Shown: piece by piece, positions 1,776 through 33,528 of the stretch
How the letters are laid out: every line of letters starts with the position of its first letter
Numbering within the stretch: the first letter of the stretch is position 1
Assembly: GCA_963840885.1 (NCBI GenBank)
Contig: CAWJAN010000006.1
Span: 116,530 to 180,529 of the forward strand
Reading direction: 5' to 3'
Source: an uncultured bacterium
Lineage (GTDB): Bacteria > Patescibacteriota > Minisyncoccia > Phycocordibacterales > GWA1-40-21
DNA length: 64,000 nucleotides
Notes under the pieces: model-generated
Databases searched by the model: none
Seen by the model: the letters and a program-made list of their open reading frames with translations, nothing else
Told to the model about the DNA's origin: nothing
Program-made: the position numbers and the translations under genes

Positions 1776-3353
1776 ATGTCATTTGCAAAAACTTATTCAG
1801 CGCAAACCGTCGGGCTTGGCGCAAAAATAATAGACGTGGAAGTCGATCTGTCCAAGGGTCTTCATTCTTTTACGATAGTCGGCCTTCCTGATAAAGCCGT
1901 GGAAGAATCCAAAGACAGGGTATCGGCTTCCATAAAAAATTCCGGCTTCACTTCTCCAAAAAGCCAGAATAAAAAAGTTGTAGTTTCGCTTGCGCCTGCC
2001 GATATCAAGAAAGAAGGCCCTGCTTTTGACCTATCAATAGCCTTATCGTATCTTCTGGCAAACGATGAAATAAAATTCGACCCGAAAAATAAGCTTTTTA
2101 TGGGAGAACTTTCCCTTGATGGCGACCTTAGAAAAACAAAGGGTATTCTGGCAATAGTTGCGGAAGCGAAAAACTGCGGCTTTACGGAAATATTTCTGCC
2201 AAAAGAAAATGCAAAAGAAGCGGCACTTATTTCAGGGATAAAAATTTACGGCGCAAAAAGCCTTAAAGAAATAATCGAACACATAAATGAGTCCGAGGAA
2301 GAAAAGAGTTTAAAATCAGGCAAAACGGTAAAAAATAATCTGAAAAAGATAGGAGCTGAGCCGCATACCGAAATATTAATTGAAGAAGACGAGCCTTTGG
2401 TGGATTTTTCGGAAATAAAAGGACAAGAGATGGCGAAAAGGGGGCTTGAAATAGCTGCTGCGGGCGGACACAACATAGCAATGTACGGGCCTCCAGGAAC
2501 CGGAAAAACGATGCTTGCAAAAGCATTCGCCCATATACTTCCTCCGCTTTCTTACGATGAAATTCTGGAAATAACTTCAATACACTCCATTGCCGGAACT
2601 TTGAAAACCGATGTCATATTGAAACCGCCTGTAAGAAATCCTCATCATACGGCATCTTATGTTTCTATTGTAGGCGGCGGAATAATTCCAAAACCCGGCG
2701 AAGTGACGCTCGCGCACAGAGGAGTTCTTTTTCTTGACGAATTTCCAGAATTCGACAGAAAAGTGATTGAGACCTTGCGCGAACCTCTTGAAGAAGGCGA
2801 GATAAGTATATCGCGTGCCCGCGGAACGCATACTTTTCCCGCGAATTTTATCCTAATTGCCGCAATGAATCCATGTCCCTGCGGAAATTTCGGTTCACGA
2901 ACAAAAACCTGCATCTGCAAGCCTATGGACCTTCAAAGATATGAAAGAAAAATATCCGGACCGATAATAGACAGGGTGGATATGTGGGTTGAAGTTTCAA
3001 AAGTGGATTATGAAAAACTTTCTGATTCAACTGCCGATAGGAAAGAGACGGCAGATATTAAAAATCGCGTCATAAAATCCAGGAATATACAAAAAGAAAG
3101 ATTTGAAAAGGCAAAAAGAAAGATTAAAACCAATAGCGAGATGGAAGCCAAGGATATAGGAAAAATTGCCGGATTGTCCGATGAAGCAAAAAATATCTTG
3201 AATGCTTCGGCGAAAAAACTGGATATTTCAGCGCGTGCATATCACAGGATTATAAAACTAGCGAGAACTATCGCCGATCTTGAAAGCGATAGTCTCATAA
3301 AACCGGAGTATATTCTCGAGGCTCTGCAGTACAGGCCGAAAAGAAATTCATAA
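1776..3353 (+). CDS. YifB/ComM-family Mg-chelatase-like AAA+ ATPase
   Basis: N-terminal Lon-like domain, Walker A GPPGTGKT, Zn-ribbon CPCGNFGSRTKTCIC, C-terminal ComM motif pattern. Confidence 0.85.
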   Translation: MSFAKTYSAQTVGLGAKIIDVEVDLSKGLHSFTIVGLPDKAVEESKDRVSASIKNSGFTSPKSQNKKVVVSLAPADIKKEGPAFDLSIALSYLLANDEIKFDPKNKLFMGELSLDGDLRKTKGILAIVAEAKNCGFTEIFLPKENAKEAALISGIKIYGAKSLKEIIEHINESEEEKSLKSGKTVKNNLKKIGAEPHTEILIEEDEPLVDFSEIKGQEMAKRGLEIAAAGGHNIAMYGPPGTGKTMLAKAFAHILPPLSYDEILEITSIHSIAGTLKTDVILKPPVRNPHHTASYVSIVGGGIIPKPGEVTLAHRGVLFLDEFPEFDRKVIETLREPLEEGEISISRARGTHTFPANFILIAAMNPCPCGNFGSRTKTCICKPMDLQRYERKISGPIIDRVDMWVEVSKVDYEKLSDSTADRKETADIKNRVIKSRNIQKERFEKAKRKIKTNSEMEAKDIGKIAGLSDEAKNILNASAKKLDISARAYHRIIKLARTIADLESDSLIKPEYILEALQYRPKRNS

Positions 3354-3396: not shown

Positions 3397-4581
3397 TTAA
3401 TTTGCAAGAGGATTATGCGCTCCTCGGACCTCGAAGTGAAGATGAGGGCCTGTGGAATATCCTGTATTTCCGGAAAGTCCGATGACTTGTCCTTGGACTA
3501 CGCTCTGTCCGCTTGAAACAAGAACCTGGCTCAAGTGTCCGTAAACAGTTTCTGTGCCGTTCGGATGTGAGATAACTATATAATTTCCGTATCCTCCGTT
3601 CCAGCCTGATGACTTTGCAACTATTATTTCTCCTGATGCGGCAGCCATGACTCTCGTTCCGACAGGAGTTCCTATATCGATAGCATTCCAGCCATGAAGG
3701 CCTTGTGTTCTTACTCCGCCGACGAGAGGGCGTATATAATAACTGTCTTCATTCGGGCCGCTTCCGCCAAGATACGGTTCAGATATGGAATTCGATCCGG
3801 ACTTCGATGCCATGGCGAGCGTTGCGCTTATATTCGAACCGCCTTCCCCATCAGGAATTATTATCTGTCCTCCGACTGTAAGTTTTGCATCGAGGCTGAG
3901 TCCGTTGAATACAGCTACTTCGCCAGCATCCGCTTTATATTTTTTGGCAATACTCGTTATGGTATCTCCGCTTACAATCGTATGAATTGTTCCGGAAACA
4001 GGCAAAATGATAAGCGCTTGTCCTGGCTGTACTACGCTGCTGTTTAGATTGTTAGCCCAAAGGATTGTATTTTGAGAAACTCCGAACATTTTGGCTATTC
4101 CCGATATTGTGTCTCCCGACCTGACTATGTATTTGCTTATCTGTCCCGTATTTCCTGCACTCGGTATATCCGCAAGAGTTCCGGATGGCCCGTTTTCTGA
4201 AACAAGAGCTTCATCGCTATTGTCAAAGACAAGATCATCTCCTCCGACAGCGGCAAGAGTGTCAAAGTTCGTTGTATTTTGTAAAAGAGGGATATCATTC
4301 GGATCTGAAGCCGCCTGATCTCCTGAAGCTATCACTACTTGCGAAGAATTGCCAAAAATCATATCTGAAATCGAAGAAAAGATGCCGGCATTCGCGGTAA
4401 ATGGCGGAAAGCTTGAAAAAATAAATGTAATAGCGACAAGCCAACTCAAATATTGAGCTTTGGATGCATCTTTTATATTGCGAACCCAGGATTTCAATAC
4501 GAAAGCTCGAGGATTCGATGAGTTTTTATTGTCTAAAATATGCCTATTTATTAAGGGATTGTCTGATATTCGGTCTGTCAA
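3397..4581 (-). CDS. LysM-domain-containing M23-family peptidoglycan metalloendopeptidase
   Basis: N-terminal TM; two LysM-like segments (YIVRSGDTISGIAKMFGV.., HTIVSGDTITSIAKKYK); M23 motifs HGWNAIDIG and GYSTGPHLHFEVR. Confidence 0.8.
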   Translation of the reverse strand: MTDRISDNPLINRHILDNKNSSNPRAFVLKSWVRNIKDASKAQYLSWLVAITFIFSSFPPFTANAGIFSSISDMIFGNSSQVVIASGDQAASDPNDIPLLQNTTNFDTLAAVGGDDLVFDNSDEALVSENGPSGTLADIPSAGNTGQISKYIVRSGDTISGIAKMFGVSQNTILWANNLNSSVVQPGQALIILPVSGTIHTIVSGDTITSIAKKYKADAGEVAVFNGLSLDAKLTVGGQIIIPDGEGGSNISATLAMASKSGSNSISEPYLGGSGPNEDSYYIRPLVGGVRTQGLHGWNAIDIGTPVGTRVMAAASGEIIVAKSSGWNGGYGNYIVISHPNGTETVYGHLSQVLVSSGQSVVQGQVIGLSGNTGYSTGPHLHFEVRGAHNPLAN

Positions 4582-7508: not shown

Positions 7509-7588
7509 CCGGATAAAAAGGCTGGTTTTGCTGCACAAAATCCGTTTTTTATCTTTTAAAAGCCATTTTTGAATGTTATAATTATTGT

Positions 7589-8389
7589 GTGAATTACAGG
7601 AAATACTTGCCTTCAAAAAGATTTCTGACATCTTTTGCTATTGCAATAATGTTTGTTCTTATTGCCGTGGCGTTTACCTACAAAAATCCTACACCAAAAG
7701 GTGGGCTCGTCGTGGAGAATTCTTCCGCAAGCACAAGCTCTCTTTTGGATCAATTGTCTCCTGAAGAACAGCAGGTTGCTGAACAATATGAAAGCCTTAA
7801 TCCTACTGACAAGATGGCTAGGGACCTTATGTCAAACATAATAGCCACCCAGCCTGCAAACGGCAGCATGGACCAGGAAACTATTGATAATCTTGTTAAT
7901 GGGGCAGTGGGAGATATTCCACAGAAAAATTTCTCTACGAGCACGGATATATCCGATCTTAATCTTATACCTATAAATCCTGATACTTTCGGAAAAGACA
8001 TAACTGCATATGCAAACATATACTATGCCCAGACTGAAAAGCTCAGAAAAATCATGGGCCAGGACTTAAATCTGATAAACGACTATATCAATACGCAAAG
8101 CGATAAGGATAAGACCGATTTGGCTTCCATAGTGGTCTCATACAAAGATATAATAAGTAATCTTGTGCAAGTGCCTATACCTGCGACTGCCGATTCGCAA
8201 GGTGTCATAGATCATCTGAAGATAATAAACGACCTGGAGATATTGATTGATATAGATAATGATATAATAAATGCAAAATACGACAGCGTAGATGTAATAT
8301 CGGACTTGGCGCTTTACAGCCAGACATCGAATGACCTTTTAGATACCCTCGGCAATATAGACACTGTTCTGAAAATACAAAGAAACTAA
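7589..8389 (+). CDS. hypothetical membrane-anchored protein (first gene of T4SS-like cluster)
   Basis: N-terminal TM FAIAIMFVLIAVAFTY then hydrophilic domain; non-ATG start in ORF track. Confidence 0.35.
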   Translation: MNYRKYLPSKRFLTSFAIAIMFVLIAVAFTYKNPTPKGGLVVENSSASTSSLLDQLSPEEQQVAEQYESLNPTDKMARDLMSNIIATQPANGSMDQETIDNLVNGAVGDIPQKNFSTSTDISDLNLIPINPDTFGKDITAYANIYYAQTEKLRKIMGQDLNLINDYINTQSDKDKTDLASIVVSYKDIISNLVQVPIPATADSQGVIDHLKIINDLEILIDIDNDIINAKYDSVDVISDLALYSQTSNDLLDTLGNIDTVLKIQRN

Positions 8390-8396
8390 GACAAAT

Positions 8397-10733
8397 ATGA
8401 ATTTTACAGGATTAATAAATAAAAAAATACCGGTCTTGATTGCAGTTTCCCTCTTATCATTGAACTTTTTATTTTTGATATTGCCTTACAAATCAAATGC
8501 CCAGTTTGCGGTTAGCGTAATAGCAAATACTGATCCCGGCACAATAGGCTTCTATACTGCTTCTGCGGCATACTATAGCGGATCAACCGCAAACCAAACC
8601 GCACAGACAACTCATGATCTTGCTTGGACGGAAATAGCCAAGCCTGCTTTGGACAAGCTTCTCCAGCAGCTTGCAAAAACAGCGGCAAGAGAGCTCATAC
8701 AAAAAATAACTGATGCCACTGTCAATTGGATAAACAGCGGCTTCAATGGAAATCCGGCATTCATAGCCAATCCGGGAGATTTCTTGGCGCAAACCGCCGA
8801 CCAAGCCGTCGGCAGCTTCATACAGAATGATCCGAATCTCAGATTCCTGTGTTCGCCGTTCCAGATTCAAGTAAAATTAGCTTTGTACACAAATTATTCC
8901 ACCACGGCATTCAATCAGATAAACTGCACTGCTTCAGGCGCTCTGACCAATCTAGAAAACGGAACATTTTCATGGAATGACTGGCTTCAGGTTGCAAGCC
9001 AGCCGCAAAATACTCCGACTGGAGCATATCTATTGGCGCAAGGACAATTAGAAGCCCAAATCGCAAACAAACAAGGCGCTGTAAGCAATGATATCAATCT
9101 CGGCAGCGGGGCTATTTCATATAAAAGCTGCACCGATTCTGTCTATCAGCTGGATAGCAAAGGAAATATAACGAACAGCTCAAATCCTGTCACTTTCACA
9201 TATACAGGCTCTGATCTTTATCCGAATTCGGCAACTCAAAATTATCTAGCGCAAAATAAAAGTAAGATATTGACCGTAAAAACAAGCTGCACGGTAAAAA
9301 CGCCTGGAACGACGATAGCCACGATGCTCGGATTCAAAGCCACATCCGAACAGAGAACCGATGAAATCGGAGCGGCATTGTCTAACGGAATAGACGCTGT
9401 TCTTTCATCGCTCTCGAATCAGCTCATTAAATTGGCTTCCGACCAATTGACCAACGGCGTCTTGGCAAACAATAGCACCAATTCCTCAAATTATAATTCG
9501 AGCTTGAATAATCTGGCTTCTCAGGCACAAAACGATTACAACGGTTCTATAACAAACGCTAACAGCGCAGCAAGCAATGTGAGCAGCAATGCAGGAACAA
9601 ATTCATCTGGAATGAACCTTGATACGGGTGTTCTCGGTTCATATGACAATACGTTCGGCAGCGGCTTCAGCACAGGCTTTACTTCCGTGAGCGGAGGCAG
9701 CAGCTTGGGCGGAACGACAAACAATATAAACGACTGCCTCTCTTCGATAAAACAGCAATATATCACAAAAATAAATTCACTTGTAAGCGGAGAAAATTCA
9801 TACCAGACGGGAATCAGCGGTCTTTTGCAGACGCTCAGTGATTCTAAAGCGTCATTTGCAACGGCAAGGTCATGCAACCTTACCCAGAATGATTCCAATT
9901 CCATATTGAGAGCCCAGCTTATTTATCAAAACGCGATAGAAAATATAGACGGCATCACTGATTCAGGAAGAAGCATACCGAGCATAATATGGAATACTCC
10001 GTACCTGAATAATCTGATAATGAACTCAAATAACAATATAACCCTGCTGAATGCCGCTGAAGATGCGGTTAATGCGGCAACATCCACTGACGGTCTTACT
10101 GCAGCCGTAAATCCTATATTGCCTCCGGTGATATTCAACGACCCGAATACCCTGGGCACCACTACAAGCGGCCTTACAGCTGTGAATTCTTTGACAACCA
10201 ATAATACTGTTCTTAAAAACCAGCAAATACTCTCATCGACTCAAGGAGCTCCTGATACCGTCGCCAATACCATCGCAACGGCCGCCGGAAGCGCTGGCCT
10301 AGGACAGAACAGTTCTTTGACTCTTCCTTCAGGAATGTTACTGACAGTTCCTTGCGGATTCCTATGTTTAAGCGCGCCGACAAATCAGCCTGTAGTTAAT
10401 CCCGGATCATCTATTAGCCTCAACGACTTAATCGTAAAGCTTATTCAGCTGAAACTGCAGTTTCCCGGCGGAGCAACTGTTAATATTTCAGGTGGAATCA
10501 CAGCGCAAATTCCTACAAGCGTTCCCGCATGCTCCACGGTCACAACAAATTCCTCCAAGACATCGGGCGGTTCCGTATTCGGATTAGGCAATAAAACAAA
10601 TAATACTTCTGGCGGCGGTTCGGTGGGCGGATTCAATATGCCGACAGACAATTCCGATGGGTTAAAAAACTTCCTGTCTTCGCTGCAAAACATATATACG
10701 ACTGCAAGTTGTCCGATAAATCTGGGCTTATAG
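8397..10733 (+). CDS. large secreted Ser/Thr/Asn-rich protein (T4SS-like cluster associated)
   Basis: Signal-peptide-like N-terminus, 778 aa, low-complexity N/S/T/G-rich. Confidence 0.4.
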   Translation: MNFTGLINKKIPVLIAVSLLSLNFLFLILPYKSNAQFAVSVIANTDPGTIGFYTASAAYYSGSTANQTAQTTHDLAWTEIAKPALDKLLQQLAKTAARELIQKITDATVNWINSGFNGNPAFIANPGDFLAQTADQAVGSFIQNDPNLRFLCSPFQIQVKLALYTNYSTTAFNQINCTASGALTNLENGTFSWNDWLQVASQPQNTPTGAYLLAQGQLEAQIANKQGAVSNDINLGSGAISYKSCTDSVYQLDSKGNITNSSNPVTFTYTGSDLYPNSATQNYLAQNKSKILTVKTSCTVKTPGTTIATMLGFKATSEQRTDEIGAALSNGIDAVLSSLSNQLIKLASDQLTNGVLANNSTNSSNYNSSLNNLASQAQNDYNGSITNANSAASNVSSNAGTNSSGMNLDTGVLGSYDNTFGSGFSTGFTSVSGGSSLGGTTNNINDCLSSIKQQYITKINSLVSGENSYQTGISGLLQTLSDSKASFATARSCNLTQNDSNSILRAQLIYQNAIENIDGITDSGRSIPSIIWNTPYLNNLIMNSNNNITLLNAAEDAVNAATSTDGLTAAVNPILPPVIFNDPNTLGTTTSGLTAVNSLTTNNTVLKNQQILSSTQGAPDTVANTIATAAGSAGLGQNSSLTLPSGMLLTVPCGFLCLSAPTNQPVVNPGSSISLNDLIVKLIQLKLQFPGGATVNISGGITAQIPTSVPACSTVTTNSSKTSGGSVFGLGNKTNNTSGGGSVGGFNMPTDNSDGLKNFLSSLQNIYTTASCPINLGL

Positions 10734-10758
10734 CTTTGTGTTATAATTTTTACGAAAG

Positions 10759-12909
10759 ATGAGTTCAATCTCAAAAAAATCAGTTGCATTAATACTCTTT
10801 ACCGTAATATTTTGCGGATTGGCCGGTTTTAATGTTGTAAGTGCCGATACTCCAAGCCCGACTCCTATACCGTCAAATTCTGCGCCAACTGCCATATCGG
10901 GATTGCAAAATATAAGCATTCCGAATTCAGCCACCCAAAATTCATCGACAGATAGTTGTTCTACATTTGATATAGGATGCTGGATTTTTCAAGCCAGTGT
11001 AACTACTATAGAAACTTTCCTTTTCAGCGTACTTAATGCCGTTCTTATTCTGCTTAATGTAGTGCTTGCATTTTTGCTAGGAGTGGTCGGCTGGTTATTC
11101 GATATAGTAATGCAATTTTCAACTGTCGGGCTTCATACTCTTTTCCAAATAAGCTCAATAAACACCGTATGGTCCTTAGTAAGAGATACCTTGAACGTAT
11201 TTTTCATATTCATGCTCCTTTATCTGGCCATACAGAAAATCATAGGAATCTGGGGAGTAAAAGCTCCCACGCAAATAGCAAATATAATATTGAGCGCCAT
11301 CTTCATAAACTTCAGCATGTTCATCGCAAAGTTCATAATAGATGTAGGCAATATATTCGCCATAACTTTTTACAACCTTCTTTCCGCACATGGCGGTTCG
11401 GTATCAGGATTTCTTGTGAATATTGCGGGCACGGGCGCATCTGTAGCTTCTACATCAACAAGCGCGGCAATGAACGTCGTAACGGCTTCTCTGACAAAAT
11501 TAACTATACCGGGAACATTGAATTCCGTGATAATAAACCTGATGGAAGCGTTCACATTGGGAGTGCTTATATATGTCTTCGGCTGGGCGATACTTATGTT
11601 TATAGGAAGAACCGTCATGCTTTTATATTATGTGATAACTTCTCCTATAGCCTTTGTGGGAAATACATTTCCAAGGCTTAAAAAAGAAGCTGACGAATGG
11701 TGGAACGGATTTGTGGACCAGATACTTGTCGCTCCGGTATTTCTATTTTTCATTTACATAATAATAACACTGACAAGCTCGACTGATTTTCAAAAAGCGA
11801 TAACGCCATCTTCATCCGCCACTCTGGTAAGCGGCGATTATAAGACTTTTTTCAGCTCATATATAACATTTATAATAGCCATCATGCTTATACTCCAGGC
11901 GCTAAAAGAAACAAAAAAACTAAGCGGAAAAGTGGCGCAAGGGGTGATTAATGTCGGCAAAGGAGCGATATTGGGAGGAGCCGCCATCGTAACCGGAGGA
12001 GCAGCGCTTTCTACAGGAACACTCGGAGTATTGTCCGGAGGAGTGGCATCAGGAGTATCAAAAATTACAGGGGGAAGAGTATCGAATGTGCTCGGCTTAA
12101 AGACCCTTTCGCAAAAAAGCTTGGGTGTTGCCAAAGGAATAGGAGAAACGGGCTACAAACTTGCCCAGGGTGAATATGAAGGAAGGCCTGGAATGCTTGG
12201 AACCCTTGCAAGATCAGCAAGAAAAGAAACATTGGGAGCTGTTGGAGCTGTTTCTGGCGGCTTGATAACAGAACAGGGGATTAAAGCTGAGCTTGCAAGG
12301 AAAGCTAATGAAGATACTAGAAAAGAAAGGGAATTAACTGAAAAGAAAGCGGCTCTTGAAAGCACTGATAAAGCTATTGAAAAAAGAGCGCAAGAAGCGG
12401 CTGAAAAAGAAACGAAAGAAAAGAAAGATAATTTGGAAAGTGAAAACAAGAGAGAGAAAGTGGAAAAAGAAAAAGCGGAACAGTGGCAAATTGATACTCA
12501 GCATGAAATGGCTAATCTGATGAATACTGGCCAGCCAGTACCAAAAGCTCTTAAAGACAGAGAGAAGCAGGCAAATGACAGACTAAGCAAGGCGACAGCA
12601 GAATTTGCTGATTCAACAAAGAGGTTACAAAACTTCTATGATAAGATGAGACAAAACTATACTAATATAGCTACGGCACTTGGAACATCTGAACACGAAG
12701 TCGCTAAAGAAATAGGAATGGCAAATAGGATTGGACCAGAAATAAAAGATTCCCAATTGGCAAGATTAAAACTCGGAACTGAAATAAAACAAGGCAAATG
12801 GAATACAAAATCCCTCTTAACTGCTATTGGAAGACTTTCGTTTACAAAGAAAGAGCAAGAAAGAACCGCTCAACAGCTATATAAAGGAACCGATGAAAAA
12901 AAATCTTAA
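10759..12909 (+). CDS. VirB6/TrbL-like polytopic membrane protein with Gly-rich and K/E-rich coiled-coil C-terminal tail
   Basis: Signal peptide, at least 6 hydrophobic helices, then GGAAIVTGGAALSTG... and KE-rich tail; sits next to PrgI-like and VirB4-like genes. Confidence 0.45.
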   Translation: MSSISKKSVALILFTVIFCGLAGFNVVSADTPSPTPIPSNSAPTAISGLQNISIPNSATQNSSTDSCSTFDIGCWIFQASVTTIETFLFSVLNAVLILLNVVLAFLLGVVGWLFDIVMQFSTVGLHTLFQISSINTVWSLVRDTLNVFFIFMLLYLAIQKIIGIWGVKAPTQIANIILSAIFINFSMFIAKFIIDVGNIFAITFYNLLSAHGGSVSGFLVNIAGTGASVASTSTSAAMNVVTASLTKLTIPGTLNSVIINLMEAFTLGVLIYVFGWAILMFIGRTVMLLYYVITSPIAFVGNTFPRLKKEADEWWNGFVDQILVAPVFLFFIYIIITLTSSTDFQKAITPSSSATLVSGDYKTFFSSYITFIIAIMLILQALKETKKLSGKVAQGVINVGKGAILGGAAIVTGGAALSTGTLGVLSGGVASGVSKITGGRVSNVLGLKTLSQKSLGVAKGIGETGYKLAQGEYEGRPGMLGTLARSARKETLGAVGAVSGGLITEQGIKAELARKANEDTRKERELTEKKAALESTDKAIEKRAQEAAEKETKEKKDNLESENKREKVEKEKAEQWQIDTQHEMANLMNTGQPVPKALKDREKQANDRLSKATAEFADSTKRLQNFYDKMRQNYTNIATALGTSEHEVAKEIGMANRIGPEIKDSQLARLKLGTEIKQGKWNTKSLLTAIGRLSFTKKEQERTAQQLYKGTDEKKS

Positions 12910-12929
12910 TCAATTAAAATAATAATGAT

Positions 12930-13694
12930 ATGGACAACGATGATATAAATCTTGAAGAACAATTTAAAAATCTGCCGCCTGAACTGCAGAAAGCGATTTC
13001 TTCCGTGGATTTGTCGGATAAACTCCAGCAGATAACAAGAAATGAGAAGCTTCTCATAGATCAGGCCGATGCTGTTCAAAAAGAAACTCTTTTAGTTCTT
13101 TTAGGCATAAATCCGATTGACGACTATATAAACAATATTGGAAAAAACGCCGGGCTCGACAAGAATACTGCTCTGAAGGTCGCACACGATGCTGATGAGC
13201 TCATCTTCAAAAATGTCCGTGAAAACCTGAAAGTAATAAGCCAGCAGATTTCTTTGGAAGAAAATGCTGAAATTTCGGAAAAAAACAATATTCCAAAGCA
13301 AAGCGATGTGCTTGCAGGCATAGAAAATCCATCGGGAATAAAAAATGAAGGTTCAGTTTCCGTAAGCTCAATGCCCTCAAATAATCCGGAAGAAAAAAGC
13401 CCTGAGTATGTGCCTTTCAATAAAGGAATAGAGATAAGGAAAGAAATCACTCCTGAGATAGAGCCTGAAATGCTGCCTGCGGTTGAACCTGGGGAAGGAC
13501 CGAAAAATAATCCTGTTAAGCCGGAAATGTATAGTGAAAATATTCCGCCTGTGGCAAATATAGTCGAGTCAAAAATGACAGGTGAGGTCGCGGTGCCTAA
13601 AAAAGAAATCGTCATAGAAGAAAAAAGCAAGCTTCCGGAAGTAAAAACTGCTCCTTCTTCTGGAGAAGATCCTTATAGGGAGCCGATAGAATAA
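12930..13694 (+). CDS. hypothetical acidic Pro/Glu-rich protein
   Basis: 254 aa, no TM, low-complexity C-terminal half. Confidence 0.35.
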   Translation: MDNDDINLEEQFKNLPPELQKAISSVDLSDKLQQITRNEKLLIDQADAVQKETLLVLLGINPIDDYINNIGKNAGLDKNTALKVAHDADELIFKNVRENLKVISQQISLEENAEISEKNNIPKQSDVLAGIENPSGIKNEGSVSVSSMPSNNPEEKSPEYVPFNKGIEIRKEITPEIEPEMLPAVEPGEGPKNNPVKPEMYSENIPPVANIVESKMTGEVAVPKKEIVIEEKSKLPEVKTAPSSGEDPYREPIE

Positions 13695-13700
13695 AAAATT

Positions 13701-14132
13701 ATGCAATTCCAAGTACCACAATTCATAGAAGTCGAGGACAGGATTTTCGGTCCTCTCACGCTTAAGCAATTCATCTATCTTGCCGGCGGAGCGGGCGGCT
13801 CGGTGGCTATTTGGCTGTTTATTCCGTTTAAAATAATCGCTGTGATTTTTATTCTTCCTCTTCTGGCTTTCGCCCTGGCGCTAGCTTTCTATAAGATAAA
13901 CGGAAAGCCTTTCATAGATGTGGTCCAGGCGGCATTCTACTATGCTCTGGGAAGCAAGCTATATCTCTGGAAAAAAGAAAATAAGGCTCCGGCAAATACT
14001 CCGGATGAGATAGCTGCGGCCAAATCCACGCTTATTGTGCCAAAAATTTCCGAAAGCAAGCTGAAGGATTTGACCTGGAGCCTCGATGTGAAAGAATCGC
14101 TTAATCCCGTAACTCGCGACGAAGATAAATGA
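13701..14132 (+). CDS. PrgI/VirB3-like small membrane protein
   Basis: QVPQFIEVEDRIFGPLTLKQFIYLAGGAGG then two TM helices; lies immediately upstream of VirB4-like gene, as in Gram-positive-type T4SS. Confidence 0.45.
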   Translation: MQFQVPQFIEVEDRIFGPLTLKQFIYLAGGAGGSVAIWLFIPFKIIAVIFILPLLAFALALAFYKINGKPFIDVVQAAFYYALGSKLYLWKKENKAPANTPDEIAAAKSTLIVPKISESKLKDLTWSLDVKESLNPVTRDEDK

Positions 14133-14188
14133 TAATAAACAAGGCATTTTTACGAATTTAGAGATTTTAGGTTATAATTATATTTGTA

Positions 14189-16673
14189 ATGGCAGCTTCA
14201 CAAGCAACCCAGGAATTCGTACCGGTAAAAGAAATCCGGGAAGGAATAGTTACGCTCAAAGACGGCTCGCTCCGTGCAGTCCTTTTGGCGTCTTCAGTAA
14301 ACTTCGCCCTTAAATCCACAGAAGAACAGCAGGCTATAATACTTCAATTCCAGAATTTCCTTAACGGCTTGGATTTTTCAATACAGATATGCATCCAATC
14401 CAGAGACTTGGACATAAGGCCGTACATAGCGCTGCTTGAAGGAAGATACAAGAATGAAGTTGGAGACCTTATGAAGATACAGATAAGGGAATATATAAAA
14501 TTCGTCAAAAGCTTCGTCGAGCAGACCAATATAATGACGAAAACTTTCTTCATAGTCATTCCATTTTCAGAAGTAGTTACGGCTGAATCGAGCAAAAATG
14601 CTCTTTCCGGACTTCTGGGAGGAAAAAAATCCGGTGCAAAAACTGGAGCTTCAGACAACTTTGAAGAGCTCAGAAGCCAGCTGGAGCAAAGGATAAGCGC
14701 AATATCACAAGGCCTTACAAGATGCGGAATAAGGACAATCCAGCTCGGCACACAAGAGGTCACCGAACTTTTCTACAAGACATTCAATCCGGGAGAGCTT
14801 GATAAGCCTATGATGCCCCAGGCTGGAAATTAAAAATATGGCCATATTGGATTTTTTAAAAAAGAATAAGGAAAACGAGCAGAAAGAAGAGAATAAGATG
14901 ACATCTTTTCTCCCTCAAGAGATTTATGAATCTGCCGTTTTGGAATTGCAGGACGTGATAGCGCCTTCGGCCCTGAAAGTTTCGCCTAAAGAGCTCAATC
15001 TCGGCGAAAAAATCGTGCGTTCGTTTTTCGTCATATCATATCCGAGATTCCTTACGGAAAGCTGGTTTTCCCCAATAATAAACCTGGACAAGGTTTTCAA
15101 TATAGCAATATTCATACATCCTATAGATACGGTAAAAGTGCTCAGGCAATTCCAGAAAAAAGTCGCCGAAGTGCAAAGCCAGATAAGGGATAGGGAAGCA
15201 AAGGGTCTTGTACGGGATCCGATGCTAGATACCGCTTATCAGGATCTTGAATCTCTGCGAGACCAGCTCCAGCAAGCCCAGGAAAAGCTTTTTGATGTCG
15301 GATTGTATATAACATTGTATGGCGATACGGAAGAAGAAATAGACAAAGTGGAAACGGAAATAAAATCCATACTTGAATCCAGGCTTATATATGTAAAACC
15401 GGCGCTATTCCAGCAGGAACAAGGATTCAAAAGCATTCTGCCGATAGCAACCGATCTTCTGGATGTACATTCCAAGCTCAATTCTTCTCCGCTTTCCAGT
15501 ATCTTTCCTTTCGTTTCTTTCGACCTCACCTCCGACAAAGGAATTCTTTACGGTATCAACAGGCACAATGCGAGCTTGGTCCTTTTCGACCGATTCTCGC
15601 TTGAAAACTACAATTCCATAATGTTTGCCAAATCCGGTTCCGGAAAATCCTACTGCACGAAACTGGAAATAATAAGCACGCTGATGTTCGATACCGATGT
15701 CATCGTCATCGATCCGGAAAGGGAATATGAATTTCTTGCCGAAGCCACAGGGGGAAAATCTTTCAATATTTCCCTCAATTCCGACGAGCCATATCAACCC
15801 ATTCGATCTTCCGGCTCCAAAAGAAGATGAATCGCCGGCGGATGTCCTTGCGTTCAATATCATCAACCTGGTCGGACTTTTCAGAATAATGCTTGGCAGG
15901 GCTTACTCCGGAAGAAGACGCTATTGTCGACAAGGCTATAACCGAAACATATGCGCTTAAGGACATAACTCCAGACTCTGATTTTTCCAATGTAGAACCG
16001 CCGCTTCTTTCGGACTTTGAACTGGTCCTTACCGGAATGAAAGGCGCCGAATCGCTCGTGCAAAGGCTTTCAAAATACACGAGGGGCACTTGGGCTGGAT
16101 TTCTAAACAGACCGACTAATGTGGACATCAACTACAAATTCATCGTTTTCTCCATCCGAGACATGGAAGACGAACTCAAGCCGGTTGCCATGTACATTAT
16201 TACTCACTATATCTGGAATGCAATAAGAAGAACCACGAAAAAAAGGCTTCTTGTCGTCGACGAAGCTTGGTGGATGATGAAATCCGAAGATACAGCATCA
16301 TTCCTTTTCTCGCTCGCAAAAAGAGGAAGAAAATACTATTTGGGACTTGCGACAATCACCCAGGACGTGGAGGACTTCCTCAAATCGCCTTACGGACTTG
16401 CCTATCGTTACGAACTCATCCATCCAGATTCTTCTGAAACAGTCGCCGACCGTCATAGATAATCTGCAAAAAGTATTCAATCTGACCGATGAAGAGAAAT
16501 ATCTTCTTCTTGAATCGGATGTCGGGGAAGGAATGTTCTTTGTCGGCCTGAAACACGTTGCCATCAAAATTATCGCTTCATATACCGAAGACCAGATCAT
16601 CACTTCCGATCCATCCCAGCTTTTAAACATCAAGAAGGCCAAAGAAGAGCTTAAAATGGCGCAGAACGCCTAG
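14189..16673 (+). pseudogene. VirB4/TraC-family T4SS ATPase, split across at least 4 reading-frame segments (pseudogene or assembly indels)
   Basis: Walker A AKSGSGKSY, Walker B LLVVDEAWWMM, GLATITQDVEDF, NPFDL motif appears in a third frame at 15790-15890. Segments 14189-14833, 14838-15830, 15697-15960, 15893-16462 and 16347-16673 together give about 826 aa. Confidence 0.7.
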
Positions 16674-16706
16674 GAAAAACCCGTTACGGGTGATAAAATA
16701 TCATCA

Positions 16707-17474
16707 ATGGTCTTAAAAAGATTTTTCATATTTTTTTTGACATTTATCGCTTTTATGTCCCTACGAAGCGTCTTTGCTTTTGCCCAGGAAACTTCGACAA
16801 CGACCCAGGCGCTACCTTCAGGGAAAGTCGAAATTTTCGTAGAGCCTCTTTCTTATATTCCTCCTTTTTATAAAGGCCTGCCGCTCTTTTCAAACGAAGG
16901 GACTGTAAAAATATTCGCTTTCACGGATATCGCCCAAAATGGGCAATCAGTATCATCCGACAATCTATCTTTTAAGTGGACAGAAAACGGGATAGTCTTG
17001 GGAAGCGAATCGGGACTGGGAAAAAATGTCCTTATGATTGATTCCGCGCTCATGCTTAAAGCTCCGGAAATAAATCTGGACGTGCTAGATTCCGACGGCA
17101 ACCTGATAACAAGCGCATCTTTGATAGTAAATATAAATAATCCTCAGGTGCTTTTCTACCAAAACAGCCCTCTTTACGGAGTTCTGTTCAATAATTCTTT
17201 GAATAACGGCTTCAATCTTGGAACCAATGAAGAATTAAATGTTATGGCGAAGCCTTTCTTTTTCAGCGTGCCCAGCGATATTTCCGGAGACCTCAATTAC
17301 TCGTGGTCAGTGAACGGAAGCGCTGTGAATTATTCCGGACAGAAAAATTCCTTGCTGCTCAGGCAGACTACCCAGGGACAGAGCGGGGTTTCGTCTGTAT
17401 CTCTCGATATAAATGATTCCGTTAATGATTTTCAGTCGGCAAGCGGAAATTTTAATGTAAGTTTCGGAAAATAA
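16707..17474 (+). CDS. secreted hypothetical protein
   Basis: Signal peptide MVLKRFFIFFLTFIAFMSLRSVFAFAQE. Confidence 0.4.
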   Translation: MVLKRFFIFFLTFIAFMSLRSVFAFAQETSTTTQALPSGKVEIFVEPLSYIPPFYKGLPLFSNEGTVKIFAFTDIAQNGQSVSSDNLSFKWTENGIVLGSESGLGKNVLMIDSALMLKAPEINLDVLDSDGNLITSASLIVNINNPQVLFYQNSPLYGVLFNNSLNNGFNLGTNEELNVMAKPFFFSVPSDISGDLNYSWSVNGSAVNYSGQKNSLLLRQTTQGQSGVSSVSLDINDSVNDFQSASGNFNVSFGK

Positions 17475-17475
17475 A

Positions 17476-18507
17476 ATGAAAATTAATAATTTTAAAAAAA
17501 TAATATCGTTGGCGGTGACTTTTCTTTCTTTTCCGTTTTTATCATCGGCTCAAACAATACAAAATTATATACCTATAAGCGGCGATAATTCGATTCAAAG
17601 CCTTGGCTTGCAGGGAACAACCAATAATCTAGGCGCGTTTTTGGGAGCCGTATATAACGTGGGAATAGCGGCAGCCGTAGCGCTTACGGTCATAATGCTT
17701 ATTTGGGGCGGAATAGAAAAGATGACGACTGAATCATATACCGGAAAAAGCAAGGCCAATGAAAGGATGAAAAATGCAGTATACGGGCTTATATTGGCTT
17801 TAACTTCCTATGTCATACTTTATATTATCAATCCATGCCTTGTTCAATTTGTAGGCAACGGATGCAACAATGCATTATTGAAAGGATCATCAGGATCGAG
17901 TAATACTTCCGGCGGAACAAGTTCAAATGTTCCAAGCACGACTGAATTCGGCGGATACAATGAACCGGTAAATAATTCTCAAGTAACGGTAGGTTCATTT
18001 GTAAATACAGGAACAAACGGCGGAACAAGCGTAGGCGGCTCTGGAAGCGGCGTTACGAGCGGATCGGTCAATCTATTGTCCGATTCTTCAGCAAAAAATT
18101 TACTTTCAATCGCGGCGATAACTGTTCAAAATCCTGCAACCTGCTCTGTCGGCACGAGTTCGCCGTGCATATCGCTTGAAGGATTGCCGCAAAATGCAGT
18201 AGACGGACTGATTGCCGCGCAAAATTACTGCAATAACAATTATGGCGCCGGATGCATTGCGGTTATAGGAGGAACTGAGCAAGGGCACCAAGCCGTCGGC
18301 GGACAAGGATCGGGATATGCGACTGTGGACATAAATTATTCCGACAACGCAAAAAATGCCCTCATAAATGCGGATGGCCTTACGGAATCGCAAAACTTCG
18401 GCGGAGGAACATCGAGAGGAATATTCACTTGCGAACCGCAAGAAAACGGGACAACAGCAATATCATGTGAAGCGAGCGGAGCAAAGGTAATTCATATACA
18501 ATTTTAA
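17476..18507 (+). CDS. VirB2/TrbC-like pilin-fold protein with long Gly/Ser-rich Cys-containing C-terminal extension (putative)
   Basis: Signal peptide, then two hydrophobic helices separated by a charged loop (LGAFLGAVYNVGIAAAVALTVIMLIWGG / EKMTTESYTGKSKANERMKN / AVYGLILALTSYVILYIINP). Confidence 0.35.
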   Translation: MKINNFKKIISLAVTFLSFPFLSSAQTIQNYIPISGDNSIQSLGLQGTTNNLGAFLGAVYNVGIAAAVALTVIMLIWGGIEKMTTESYTGKSKANERMKNAVYGLILALTSYVILYIINPCLVQFVGNGCNNALLKGSSGSSNTSGGTSSNVPSTTEFGGYNEPVNNSQVTVGSFVNTGTNGGTSVGGSGSGVTSGSVNLLSDSSAKNLLSIAAITVQNPATCSVGTSSPCISLEGLPQNAVDGLIAAQNYCNNNYGAGCIAVIGGTEQGHQAVGGQGSGYATVDINYSDNAKNALINADGLTESQNFGGGTSRGIFTCEPQENGTTAISCEASGAKVIHIQF

Positions 18508-18510
18508 ATT

Positions 18511-19782
18511 ATGTCCAGAAGAAATACCATAATAATAGTGCTTACAATAATCTTCGTAATGATGGGCGTTCTGATTTTTTGGTATTCGAGCACTAATAAG
18601 AATATTTCCGGAACTACGGGAACAAGTGGTTCGACTACTTCTCCTTTCGGAAACACTTCCGGCAACAAATTCGTAAGTGTAATAAATTCCACGACCACAG
18701 AAGCAAATTCCCAATCAGGCCAATCTGGACAAGAAAATTCACAGAAGCCTCTTCTTATACAGATTTATAAAAATCCGGTATCCGGCGATATTTTCTTTGC
18801 AAATAAATCCGGACAGGATGTCCTCAGATTCATAGACAGGGCAGTGGGCAATGCATATGAATATGTTCCTGCATCAAACACGGCTCCGATGAGACTTACA
18901 AATACCACCATACCTAAAATAGAAGAAGCGGTATGGTCATCAAACGGAGAAAATGTTCTTTTAAGGACACTTGAAAACGATTCGGACAATATAAGCACTT
19001 TTTCCGGAAAAATAAATCCTGCCGGCACAAGCAGCCAGCCTGGAGAGATGGCTGGAACATTTCTGGCTTCCAATATAACGGAAGCGGCAATAAATCCTTC
19101 AGGAAACAGAGTTTTTGAATTGAATACGAAACCTTCTGGCGCCGGTTCCTTCGGTATTACCGCTATCTTCGACGGATCGAATAAAAAACAGGTTTTTGAT
19201 TCTCCAATAACATATTGGAACATCTCCTGGCCGAATGATTCTCTTTTGGCATTCAATACCAAGCCTAGCTCGGATTATTCCGGTTATCTTTTCTTCTTCA
19301 ATATGCAGACCGGATCTATGAGCGAAATCCTTGGAAACATGGCGGGCCTGTCTACTGTCACAAACAGCGATGCAAGCATGATCGCTTATTCGCAAAGCCA
19401 GGATAACGGTTTTTCGCTAAATATCTACGACAATAAGAAAAAAATTGCGGAAAATATTTCTTTGCCTACTTTAGCCGATAAATGCATCTGGGGAAGCAAA
19501 GACAATACCGTACTATATTGCGCCGTCCCGATAAGCATAAATCCTGATAAATATCCCGATTCATGGTATCAAGGCTCTGAAACTTTCTCCGACGATATAT
19601 GGAAAATAGACGCGCAAAAACAAGAGATAAGCCTCGTATACCAGATAGGATCAAGCGGAGCGGATTATGTGGACGCAACAGATCTGAAAATAAGCCCGGA
19701 TGACAATTATCTTGCCTTCACAAATAAAAAAGATCTCAGCCTGTGGGTCCTGAATGTTTCAGGCGCTTCATCGGCACAATAA
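18511..19782 (+). CDS. membrane-anchored TolB/PD40-like beta-propeller protein (putative)
   Basis: N-terminal TM; repeated SxDxxxLAF / SPDDNYLAFT-type motifs. Confidence 0.35.
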   Translation: MSRRNTIIIVLTIIFVMMGVLIFWYSSTNKNISGTTGTSGSTTSPFGNTSGNKFVSVINSTTTEANSQSGQSGQENSQKPLLIQIYKNPVSGDIFFANKSGQDVLRFIDRAVGNAYEYVPASNTAPMRLTNTTIPKIEEAVWSSNGENVLLRTLENDSDNISTFSGKINPAGTSSQPGEMAGTFLASNITEAAINPSGNRVFELNTKPSGAGSFGITAIFDGSNKKQVFDSPITYWNISWPNDSLLAFNTKPSSDYSGYLFFFNMQTGSMSEILGNMAGLSTVTNSDASMIAYSQSQDNGFSLNIYDNKKKIAENISLPTLADKCIWGSKDNTVLYCAVPISINPDKYPDSWYQGSETFSDDIWKIDAQKQEISLVYQIGSSGADYVDATDLKISPDDNYLAFTNKKDLSLWVLNVSGASSAQ

Positions 19783-23275: not shown

Positions 23276-24378
23276 ATGAAAATAGAGTGTGTGAAAGAAA
23301 AATTCCAATCAGCCATATCAAAAGCTGAAAAAATAGTTTCCAAAAATATAAACTTACCTGTATTATCATGTGTTTTTTTGGAAACAAAAGGAAGTAATCT
23401 TGTTATAAGGGCAACAAACCTTGATTTTGGTATAGAAACAACAATTCCGGTTAAAAAATATTCAGATGGAAAAATTTGCGTACCAGCCAATATATTAAGT
23501 TCTTTTCTAAATAATATTACAGATGATAATAATATCTCATTAGAGGAAAAAGACGGTCTCTTAAGGATTAAAACAGATAAAACTGAGGCGGAAATAAAAA
23601 CTTATTCCCCAGATGATTTTCCGACAATACCAACAATTGATGACGGTGTTGTTTGTAAAATATCTTCAAAAGACCTTCAAAACGGGATAAAATCAGTTTA
23701 TTACAGCTCATCAACCTCTAGTGTTAAGCCTGAGCTTGGCAACGAGTTTATATATATTCAAATGATGATAATTTAGTTTTTGTGGCAACCGACTCGTTCA
23801 GGCTTGCTGAAAAAACCATAAAAACCAAGAAAAAGGTAGTTTTACCAGGAATTCTAATTCCTCTTAAGAATGCCGCCGACATACTGAAGATAATAGATGG
23901 GACAGACGAAGAAATAGATATGAATTCTACAAAAAACCAAATGTCGCTGTCTTTTAACGGAATATATATGGTTTCACGGGTTGTAGATGGAATCTTTCCT
24001 GATTACAAGCAGATAATTCCAAAAGAAGAAAAAACAAAGGCCGTCCTATTAAAACAAGACCTTATCAATTCTTTAAAAATATCCAATATATTCTCAGATA
24101 ATTTCAACCAGGTGAATATTTCCGTCATCCCGTCTTCAAAAAAAATAGAGATAAAAACTAGAAATTCTAATATAGGAGAAAATACAAATAAAATAGACGC
24201 CAATATAGAAGGCGAAGAAATCGTGGTTAATTTCAATTACAGGTACATAGTAGATTGCATGGGTTCAATCCCGCAGGATAGCGTGTCTTTGGTTTTTAAT
24301 GGAATAAATAAGGCTCTGGTGGTAAGAGGGGCCACCGACAAGAGCTTCACGTACCTAGTAATGCCTATGAATAGATAA
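23276..24378 (+). CDS. dnaN: DNA polymerase III beta sliding clamp, interrupted by a single frameshift near 23755-23785
   Basis: First frame ends ..KPELGNEFIYIQMMII*; second frame continues NDDNLVFVATDSFRLAEK..., the canonical DnaN junction. Confidence 0.8.
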
Positions 24379-29336: not shown

Positions 29337-29867
29337 TTAGTCGGCATTCGTATATACATCCTGGACATCTTCGTTGTTTTCCAGATCTTCAATGAGTTTT
29401 TCCAGTTTGAAGGCGTCTTCATCGGAAAGTTCCATTGCTGTCTTAGGCATCCAGCCGTCAGGGGTTTTCTCGAATGCCCATGAAGCGCTTCCGGGAGTCG
29501 CAAGAGATGCGCCGTTTTCAGAGAGAATGTGTTTTACTTCGGCAGCGGATTTATTCCTGTTTGTCGTCAGGACATCGATTATAAGCGCGGAGCCGCCAGG
29601 GCCATACGCTTCATAAACTATGGATTCCATCTGTTCCGCATCCGCCCCCATTGCTTTGCTGACCGCTCTGTCTATATTTTCACTCGGCATGCTTACGGAT
29701 TTCGCTTTTTCTATAGCAGCTCGGAGTCCTGGAGAAGAAAGATTTCCCGAGGCTTTTTTTGCTTCAACTTGGATCAATTTGGCCATCTTGGAAAACATCT
29801 TGCTTTTTTGGGCATCGGTTTTGGCTTTCTCCCTTTTTATTTTTGAAAATTTATTGTGTCCGGACAT
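29337..29867 (-). CDS. YebC/PmpR-family transcriptional regulator (compact, 176 aa)
   Basis: MSGHNKFSKIKREKAKTDAQKSK.. N-terminus and ..EDVQDVYTNAD C-terminus typical of YebC; middle domain shortened. Confidence 0.7.
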   Translation of the reverse strand: MSGHNKFSKIKREKAKTDAQKSKMFSKMAKLIQVEAKKASGNLSSPGLRAAIEKAKSVSMPSENIDRAVSKAMGADAEQMESIVYEAYGPGGSALIIDVLTTNRNKSAAEVKHILSENGASLATPGSASWAFEKTPDGWMPKTAMELSDEDAFKLEKLIEDLENNEDVQDVYTNAD

Positions 29868-30417: not shown

Positions 30418-31468
30418 CTATAGCAACTTACTCGGATTTTTTTTGTTCAGATGCTTCCTAGCCCTGTCTGTAGTTGTCCTTCCGCGCGGCGTTCGTTCAA
30501 TAAATCCAAGCTGCAGGAGATATGGCTCATAAACATCTTCTATGGTGGCTTGCTCTTCGGAAAGGGCAGCGGCAAGAGTATTGAGGCCCGACTGGCCCGC
30601 CATTGAATTTATCTTCTATGATTTCAAGCATTGCGCTATCGGCGCTGTTTAATCCGAATTCATCTATACCGAGCATATCTATAGCTTCTTTCACGAGTTC
30701 TTCGGTAAGGTCTTTGTTTTCTGACTTGAGCCAAGATCACGACCTCTTTTCAGGAGATAATTGGCGGTTCGCGGAGTAGATCTGCTTCTTTTGGCTATTT
30801 CTTTTTTTGCCTGCTTCGTCCATTTTCACTCCGAGAATTTTTGCTGATCGTTCTATTATTTTTTCTATCTCTTCATCGGTATAAAATTCAAGTTTGAACA
30901 CTCCACCGGAAAATCGTGAGCGAAGCGGAGCGGAGAGCATTGCGACTCTTGTCGTCGCAGCGATCAAAGTAAATGGCGGAAGCTCGAGCTGAATCGTTCT
31001 TGCGACTTGGTCCTTTGCCTATAATTATATCAAGTGGCCTGATTCCATCGCAGGATATAGGACTTCTTCAATAGTTTTGTTCAGTCTATGGATTTCGTCT
31101 ATGAAAAGTATGTCGCCAGCCGAAAGATTCGTAAGTATGGAAGCGAGGTCGCCGACTTTTTCTATTGCCGGTCCGGAAGTGGTTTTTATCTGAGCTCCGA
31201 TTTCCTTTGCTATGAGATTTGCCAGAGTCGTCTTGCCTAGCCCGGGAGATCCATAAAAAAGAATATGCTCGGGCGGGTGATTCCTTTGACGGGCCGCCTC
31301 GAGCAGTATTTTAAGATTATCTTTTATGTTTTTCTGGCCTATATATTCGTTCCAGGATGAAGGCCTGAGCGTCTGGTCTAGAAATTTTACGTCGCCGTTT
31401 AAATGGCTATTTTCATCATTATTTTCGGTATTAGGAGCCTTTTTGTCATTTTTTCTTGACATATTCAT
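30418..31468 (-). pseudogene. ruvB: Holliday junction helicase RuvB, fragmented by multiple frameshifts
   Basis: N-terminal piece with Walker [12 protein letters not shown], Walker [11 protein letters not shown] (31025-31468); middle piece ..[17 protein letters not shown].. (30737-30967); C-terminal winged-helix piece (30418-30603). Confidence 0.7.

Positions 31469-31821: not shown

Positions 31822-33528
<1,707 letters not shown>

Follow-up and report, generated by a model that had tools for sequence, protein, structure and literature searches.

Positions 7589-19782 of the 64,000-nt stretch analyzed here (the window, part of a public 210,238-bp NCBI/ENA contig; all coordinates are window-based) contain ten open reading frames (ORFs), designated A to J, that are best explained, with a probability of roughly 0.6, as a chromosomally fixed, vertically inherited type IV secretion system (T4SS) of the Patescibacteria clade, belonging to an ultra-small genome of the Paceibacteria (Parcubacteria; candidate phyla radiation, CPR) and serving episymbiosis as opposed to conjugation. 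The T4SSs of Patescibacteria have been described previously (Wang 2023, Cell 186:4803 (PMC10633639); Quinonero-Coronel 2025, Microb Genom 11:001409 (PMC12102498)). In the 2025 survey, their VirB4 proteins form a clade related to the mating-pair-formation (MPF) class MPF-FATA, with TrsD as the commonest partner and with PrgI/VirB3, VirB6, and VirB2-like pilins as further components; relaxases are scarce, the type IV coupling proteins (T4CPs) are encoded away from virB4, and the Paceibacteria loci lie near dnaA, dnaN, rnpA, and ksgA (PMC12102498). Because both the components and the location have been reported there, the present cluster is a further member of a described system and does not constitute a new class; an earlier reading of this DNA from its sequence alone had called the composition unusual, but it is the standard, already published one (PMC12102498, PMC10633639). 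The locus is of value as a clean Paceibacteria example with a motor that is more constrained than DnaA and a defined set of ten syntenic genes.

The signature ATPase, protein G, comprises 610 residues after the repair of three frameshifts, which are considered below. The repaired protein scores 373 bits against the NCBIfam model conju_CD1110 (cutoff 325) and matches TIGR00929 (VirB4_CagE) with an E value of 5e-33, and in the PDB it matches the Thermoanaerobacter VirB4 (4AG5, E=3.9e-39) and R388 TrwK (E=4e-6); since it also has both Walker motifs, A (GSGKS) and B (DEAW), the VirB4 ATPase recognized in the sequence-only reading is upheld. Protein F matches the NCBIfam TrsD (TrsD/TraD) family with an E value of 6e-8, which is under that model's cutoff, and its counterpart in an independent assembly is tagged PF26593 (TraC-like). 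Because the two proteins split the alignment to the CD1110 VirB4 model, F covering positions 2-120 and G positions 174-733, F is a free-standing counterpart of the N-terminal module of VirB4, known in the literature as TrsD; the count of nine genes given earlier, in which TrsD was seemingly merged with VirB4, becomes ten. Protein E scores 40.7 bits against Pfam PF12666 (PrgI; cutoff 27) and its gene, in the region adjacent to virB4, is kept in 76 of 80 related loci, in agreement with the PrgI/VirB3-like identity that had been proposed.

Protein I has a signal peptide and two transmembrane (TM) helices, modeled by AlphaFold as a helical hairpin (residues 52-118) with a predicted local distance difference test score (pLDDT) above 90 for most of its length. 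The window copy reaches 23.2 bits against Pfam T4SS_pilin (PF18895), just below the cutoff of 26.6; 39 of 41 positional orthologues match this family (best E=2.4e-10) and three match TrbC/VirB2. The orthologue matches and the predicted hairpin sustain the earlier view of protein I as a VirB2-like pilin with a long extension rich in Gly, Ser, and Cys; the extension comprises 225 residues, is rich in Gly, Ser, and Asn, and contains 8 Cys.

Protein C has a signal peptide, at least six TM helices, a Gly-rich segment at residues 400-520 (22% Gly), and a Lys/Glu-rich tail at residues 520-716. Sequence-profile searches of Pfam (including TrbL), NCBIfam, and the PDB gave no match; two distant homologues bear a precomputed tag for PF19590, probably TrbL_3, which was not reproduced at E≤0.01. 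In the AlphaFold model of C, based on 23 sequences, most 10-residue blocks across the TM core (residues 90-340) have pLDDT values of 85-92, and a Foldseek search with this model against 350,542 PDB chains returned R388 stalk entries (TrwJ/VirB5-TrwI/VirB6) in all of the top five positions, with probabilities of 0.90-0.99, E values of 0.017-0.19, TM-scores on the target of 0.39-0.44, and about 300 aligned columns. The chains matched in these entries are taken to be TrwI/VirB6. On this predicted fold, protein C is judged with moderate confidence to be VirB6-like; of the VirB6/TrbL-like protein with a Gly-rich and Lys/Glu-rich tail that was described from the sequence alone, the composition stands and the predicted fold agrees with the identity, whereas sequence profiles gave nothing.

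Protein D consists of a conserved helical N-terminal domain, a Pro/Glu-rich linker, and a C-terminal DPYRE motif; no relative was found in Pfam or by profile search against the PDB. In an alignment of 31 orthologues (A10), the D, Y, and E of the motif are invariant and the P is present in more than 90%, and the linker that precedes it is disordered. This tail looks like a short docking peptide, the partner of which may be VirB4 or TrsD. Protein A has no match in Pfam or NCBIfam, and a search of the same two collections identified no VirB8-like component among the cluster proteins; VirB8 was likewise not found in most Patescibacteria (PMC12102498).

The homologues of this VirB4 number more than 8000; among the 120 top-ranking cluster representatives, identity to it is 82-92% and all are full-length (602-614 aa), and the top representatives are labeled Patescibacteria, Paceibacterota, or Minisyncoccia. 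For comparisons of gene context, a set of 80 related loci was used, one genome per species, nearly all labeled Patescibacteria (Zambryski-, Taylor-, and Nomurabacteria, Paceibacter, and generic Parcubacteria, Paceibacterota, or Saccharibacteria). As far as the contigs reach, the gene order pcrA-ksgA-[A]-B-C-D-E-F-G-H-I-J-[jag]-yidC-rnpA-dnaA-dnaN-PBP1 is retained almost without exception; BLAST detects A in 6, B in 55, D in 41, E in 76, F in 78, H in 72, and J in 59 of the loci. An independent Logan assembly (ERR12036782) encodes an identical protein C, has the same gene order, and contains an intact 610-aa virB4. The co-oriented, tightly packed genes reported earlier are present, all on the forward strand with gaps of 1-56 bp, and the recurrence of their order in the related Paceibacteria loci and in the independent assembly places the cluster beyond chance.

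The components differ greatly in their rates of divergence. Across Paceibacteria species, identity to the VirB4 of the window is 74-87% with a median of 79%, compared with medians of 59% for TrsD and 54% for PrgI; among the flanking gene products the medians are 59% for DnaA, 55% for PcrA, 51% for KsgA, and 43% for YidC, and for B, C, D, H, I, and J they are 27-37%. VirB4 identity exceeds DnaA identity in all 49 of 49 loci, with a mean difference of 20 points. These values suggest that the core is under purifying selection and that the surface parts are diversifying. Identity to the VirB4 of the window reaches no more than 37% among the closest plasmid-encoded VirB4 proteins, which come from Streptomyces, Bacillales, and Clostridium; several of the best are annotated as members of the CD1110 family. 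The GC content of the cluster (0.41-0.43) is the same as that of its flanks. On the 5' side are genes for an M23/LysM peptidase (minus strand), pcrA/uvrD, and ksgA/rsmA, and on the 3' side are jag (KH/R3H), yidC, and rnpA on the minus strand, followed by dnaA and dnaN; the cluster therefore abuts the replication origin (oriC), and the ten genes are probably a single operon adjoining it. The fixed synteny, flank-like GC, distant plasmid relatives, and high VirB4 identity indicate a vertically inherited, strongly constrained chromosomal machine, the ancestry of which lies in monoderm conjugation.

That ancestry raises the question of whether the cluster could be the MPF part of an integrated conjugative element (ICE) whose relaxase, T4CP, and integrase lie beyond the window. 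Its VirB4 is of the CD1110 family, the members of which are conjugative ATPases of Gram-positive bacteria, and the nearest named relatives of TrsD, PrgI, and the pilin are in conjugative plasmids and Mycoplasma ICEs, but such an origin for the present locus is very improbable. The cluster occupies the same chromosomal site, from ksgA to yidC/dnaA, in nearly all loci with long enough flanks; no integrase, repeats, or GC shift were seen in the window; VirB4 is more conserved than DnaA and only distantly related to any plasmid VirB4; and the 2025 survey reports relaxases in only 103 genomes, rarely near virB4, against 2,474 virB4 genes (PMC12102498). Because the synteny beside oriC is fixed across the related loci, the cluster is very probably not an ICE, and the suggestion from the sequence alone that it is no ordinary one is strengthened by its presence at the same site in dozens of species. 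Within the window, the noted absence of VirD4, relaxase, and VirB11 was also reproduced, a Pfam scan of 54 of the larger ORFs having given no match to the relaxase, T4CP (VirD4/TcpA), or VirB11 families.

In this assembly virB4 is not a single ORF, a feature overlooked in the sequence-only reading: the frame shifts from 0 to 1, to 2, and back to 0. When orthologues are compared by tblastn, the breaks map to about 15790, 15895, and 16399, and each is explained by a single extra base, a G at 15786, an A at 15898, and a G at 16400. Deletion of these three bases gives the 610-residue protein, which is collinear with all homologues and has no remaining stop codon; at the level of individual bases the repair is tentative. 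The public NCBI/ENA contig encodes a truncated VirB4 fragment of 330 aa. An exact look-up of the repaired protein in the protein collection gave no identical entry, so the intact VirB4 of the independent assembly differs from it at some residues. An alternative genetic code was considered as the cause of the split gene and rejected, since each break is a shift of frame caused by one inserted base and none is an in-frame stop.

The three breaks could be real, in which case the motor would be non-functional and the cluster would be decaying into pseudogenes in this strain. Three single-base insertions within 1.8 kb are unlikely to cluster in this way at a uniform error rate, the public record encodes only the truncated fragment, and an estimated total of about 8 detected frameshifts falls in three conserved genes, whereas polA, PBP1, and a gene for a 1716-aa protein are single long ORFs. 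Decay is nevertheless improbable, for the essential dnaN and also ruvB are interrupted in the same assembly, a sign that assembly or polishing went wrong in conserved genes: the frame of dnaN changes near 23750, leaving ORFs of 166 and 198 aa, and ruvB is broken into four or more fragments. Moreover, a near-identical independent assembly has the intact virB4 in the same context, virB4 here contains no other stop and is at least 82% identical to its homologues, and all nine other genes of the cluster are intact. Since dnaN and ruvB are broken as well and the independent copy is intact, the three virB4 frameshifts are most likely assembly or polishing errors. Automated annotation of the public assembly, with its indels in virB4, dnaN, and ruvB, would miss or truncate the signature ATPase. 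The large Pfam-scanned ORFs of polA, PBP1, and the 1716-aa protein are each uninterrupted, and the indels seem to be concentrated in conserved genes. A homologue of YebC/TACO1 in the window is only 176 aa long, with its Pfam match in two stretches, and may be shortened or damaged.

Beyond the hairpin, pilin I continues through a disordered Gly/Ser linker (residues 125-195) into a folded Cys-rich C-terminal domain (residues 200-343), for which pLDDT is about 90. Extensions of at least 60 aa are present in 42 of 57 pilin orthologues and fall into about 26 BLAST clusters, although pilins at some loci (L001 and L004, for example) are bare. Domains recognized in the orthologue extensions are Peptidase_M15_3, VanY, M15_4, CHAP, NlpC/P60, SLT, and PG_binding_1/3. 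Other pilins (L075, P0149, and P0150-P0152) have modules on the N-terminal side of the hairpin, such as a PhoD_N/purple-acid-phosphatase-N-like module at L075:12870-14108 and PG_binding_1 in P0149. In the solved VirB2/TraA pili (F/pED208 and the T-pilus), both termini face outward; modules appended to the pilin would therefore be displayed at the surface, and the occurrence of N-terminal modules on some pilins fits an extracellular location of both termini.

The C-terminal domain of the window pilin belongs to a small family, for which a search of 1.84 billion proteins returned 82 representatives (E≤1e-3), and is located at the C terminus of proteins of about 300 aa; a pilin domain is present in 67 of 74 aligned members. 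The family conserves Glu268, His271, His277, Asp285, and His340. Assignment to the LAS/M15 (VanY-like) zinc peptidases, a group defined by H-x(3-7)-D and H-x-H motifs together with similarity in sequence or fold, was prompted by the family motif sH..G..vD ... HWH and by the order of strands, and was rejected: profile search against the PDB gave no support, in Pfam a single member was marginal, hhalign comparison with the orthologue VanY and M15_3 domains gave a probability below 1%, and Foldseek against the PDB or BFVD gave no support. As a more speculative proposal, which we think rather unlikely in this full form, the pilin may be "armed": a VirB2-type hairpin would polymerize and display interchangeable, fast-evolving, cell wall-directed warheads on its outward-facing termini, the one in this window being the Cys-rich domain with its conserved Glu/His/Asp/His cluster, so that the fiber would bind or cut the host wall. 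If this is true, the functions of VirB2 and VirB1 would be combined in one protein tuned to the host range, the fiber would open a conduit for feeding or secretion, and the slow-evolving VirB4/TrsD/PrgI motor would be the invariant engine behind a fast-diversifying host interface. Swappable peptidoglycan-directed modules on the pilin suggest how an episymbiont might breach or grip the wall of its host.

Proteins B, H, and J appear to be extracytoplasmic. Protein B is rich in Ser, Asn, and Thr with an N-terminal signal or anchor, as expected of the secreted low-complexity protein that had been described; it contains 10 Cys, and has a lineage-specific conserved N-terminal domain (about residues 75-360) and a variable tail. 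In orthologues, the tails contain F5/8 type C (discoidin; four cases), Bact_surface_Ig-like, and PKD domains; profile search of B against the PDB found nothing significant. It is likely that B is an adhesin or host-contact component. Protein H has a signal peptide and two Ig-like β-sandwich repeats, compared with three in most orthologues (alignment A9), and its profile matches the Ig-like domains of T4-type Hoc (E=1.8e-4). Relative to most of the orthologues compared (L001-L047), the missing repeat is the first of the three, and the two-repeat form is also found in L048 and L055. The profile of protein J weakly matches TolB (7mx5, E=0.0017 over about 115 residues), and scattered matches to PD40 (two), DPPIV_N (two), and DUF5050 (one), with E values of 5e-4 to 5e-3, occur among 44 orthologues. 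A TolB/PD40-like β-propeller is plausible for J; these matches weakly favor the earlier description of a PD40-like propeller. For five of the ten genes (A, B, D, H, and J), no T4SS component with a name is a match.

In the episymbiotic system that we favor, VirB4 and TrsD, docked on PrgI and the VirB6-like protein, would power assembly of the pilin fiber and a translocation channel across the monoderm envelope. The C-terminal module of the pilin would be displayed on the cell surface or along the fiber and, together with B, H, and J, would form a fast-evolving layer for contact with the host and penetration of its wall. Episymbiosis could be served by the export of proteins to the host or by a conduit opened into its cell. 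Transposon sequencing (Tn-seq) of Southlakia epibionticum marks the T4SS, including its pilins, as essential, and no coupling protein or relaxase is recognizable there (PMC10633639). No T4SS before that of the Patescibacteria had been shown to be indispensable for the growth of its bearer, and the role of this system has been called "completely unknown" (PMC11665869; PMC12857230). T4SS pilins are also among the most highly expressed extracellular genes of unknown function in Patescibacteria-methanogen enrichment cultures (PMC10936435). By analogy with Southlakia, the present system is probably essential.

The apparatus might instead work inward: derived from a T4SS, it would import DNA, nucleotides, or other macromolecules of the host, in the manner of ComB of Helicobacter pylori or the archaeal Ced system, and so feed a cell that is unable to make nucleotides. 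The lack of a relaxase or T4CP in the window scan and the presence of a comM-like gene 4 kb upstream are in keeping with this, and a review proposes the T4SS as a candidate route of nucleotide acquisition, with ComB as the precedent (PMC11665869). There is also a weak local NCBIfam match of VirB4 to the DNA-import protein CedB (E=2e-9), but at 36 bits it is far under the cutoff of 700 and is confined to the Walker B region, and no components specific to ComB or Ced were detected. The window, moreover, encodes type IV pilus and competence-type machinery apart from the T4SS, and Southlakia can do without comEC but not without its T4SS (PMC12857230). An importer is accordingly a minority possibility, to be kept in view beside the episymbiotic export system or conduit.

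Several points weigh against the preferred explanation. The search covers 64 kb of a 210-kb contig, and a distant T4CP or relaxase is conceivable; in many genomes T4CP homologues lie far from virB4 (PMC12102498). The identification of VirB6 derives from a model with a mean pLDDT of 67.8 and Foldseek E values that are only as low as 0.017, and neither a VirB8-like nor a clear VirB1-like component was identified in the cluster. The pilin domain of the window has Gln277 and Val338 at two positions where its family conserves His, and it was matched to no fold or enzyme family by PDB profile search, Pfam, hhalign, or Foldseek. Three frameshifts in 1.8 kb exceed what a uniform error rate predicts, and a real inactivation in the strain is conceivable. 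Finally, we know of no substrate, effector, or structure for any Patescibacteria T4SS, and transport might run in either direction, as export or as import.

Compared with other T4SSs of the Patescibacteria clade, including that of Southlakia (SEML1_0006-0019), the window has the same VirB4, TrsD, PrgI/VirB3, VirB6, and VirB2-like pilin and the same chromosomal position by dnaA, dnaN, rnpA, and ksgA, with no relaxase or T4CP nearby. It differs from the T4SS of the Saccharimonadia in having one pilin gene, as opposed to an array of six sequence-divergent pilins, and from the published systems generally in the long C-terminal domain of its pilin (the 2025 paper makes no mention of pilin-domain fusions; PMC12102498), in its lineage-specific accessory proteins B, D, H, and J, which are unnamed in the papers, and in a VirB6 that sequence profiles do not detect. 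In the literature searched, modular pilin extensions, a quantified conservation of VirB4 over DnaA, and the accessory set B/D/H/J were not found, and these are offered as leads.

With the Gram-positive MPF-FATA/FA systems (Prg/Pcf of pCF10, Trs of pGO1, CTn2/CD1110, and the Clostridium pCW3 type), the cluster shares a CD1110-family VirB4, PrgI, TrsD, and a monoderm envelope, but the best plasmid VirB4 matches, from Clostridium, Bacillales, and Streptomyces, are only 30-37% identical; the window yielded no relaxase, T4CP, PrgK-type hydrolase, or PrgB adhesin; the cluster is not on a mobile element; and it has a VirB2-like pilin, which is absent from the Gram-positive systems. The R388/pKM101/Ti-type (MPF-T) systems are similar in that the fold of C best matches R388 TrwI/VirB6, the pilin has a VirB2-type hairpin, and VirB4 matches TrwK, but here VirB5, VirB7-10, and VirB11 were not found, the envelope lacks an outer membrane, the pilin carries its 225-residue extension, and sequence identity is a negligible 11-13%. 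A likeness to the T4SS of Mycoplasma ICEs is seen in sub-threshold matches of the pilin to the Mbov_0395 pilin-like family and in matches of TrsD and VirB4 to the Mbov_0397 VirB4 model, both systems having a pilin-like protein in a wall-less or monoderm cell; however, these matches are under the curated cutoffs, and the Mycoplasma system is on a mobile ICE, whereas that of the window is chromosomally fixed.

Table 1. Positions of the cluster genes and of other features of the window mentioned in the text
Feature	Position	Strand	Description
Promoter-like site	7555..7582	+	TTTAAA-16-TG-TATAAT, directly 5' of gene A; 10/12 matches, extended -10
Gene A	7589-8389	+	266 aa, bitopic, N-terminal TM anchor; least conserved member
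Gene B	8397-10733	+	778 aa, S/N/T-rich surface protein
Gene C	10759-12909	+	716 aa, polytopic membrane protein, VirB6-like (moderate confidence)
Gene D	12930-13694	+	254 aa, acidic, TM-less, cytoplasmic
Gene E	13701-14132	+	143 aa, PrgI/VirB3-like small membrane protein
Gene F	14189-14833	+	214 aa, TrsD / TraC-like
Gene G	14838-16673	+	VirB4 ATPase, 610 aa after repair of three frameshifts
Gene H	16707-17474	+	255 aa, secreted, Ig-like repeats
Gene I	17476-18507	+	343 aa, VirB2-like pilin with C-terminal extension
Gene J	18511-19782	+	423 aa, N-terminally anchored, extracellular, propeller-like
comM-like gene	1776-3353	+	Mg-chelatase-family ATPase
M23/LysM gene	3397-4581	-	M23 peptidase with two LysM domains
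dnaN	23276-24378		split ORF
ruvB	30418-31468	-	fragmented
YebC/TACO1 homologue	29337-29867	-	176 aa
Type IV pilus machinery	31822-33528	-	
Type IV pilus machinery	48727-50484, 50520-51734, 51782-54231	+	
Propeller-repeat protein region	42389-47539	+	1716 aa
Gene after type IV pilus genes	54228-55646		472 aa

The promoter-like site 5' of gene A (Table 1) is a possible candidate for the operon promoter, to be read with the result that in a promoter and terminator scan the counts of such sites in the region were not above those in shuffled sequence. The ComM-like protein encoded 4 kb upstream of the cluster belongs to a competence-associated family. The M23/LysM peptidase gene lies 3 kb upstream of the cluster; of the 80 related loci, only 8 have it close to virB4, and VirB1-like proteins with M23/LysM domains were noted in the 2025 survey (PMC12102498).

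Elsewhere in the window, the giant 1716-aa protein contains NHL, SBBP, and other β-propeller repeats and is possibly a surface adhesin; the ORF that follows it, of 354 aa, has no family match. The type IV pilus set consists of two PilB-type ATPases, PilC, and two pilins with N-methyl motifs, one of which is 608 aa long and includes a CarboxypepD_reg domain, and an unassigned 472-aa gene follows these pilus genes.

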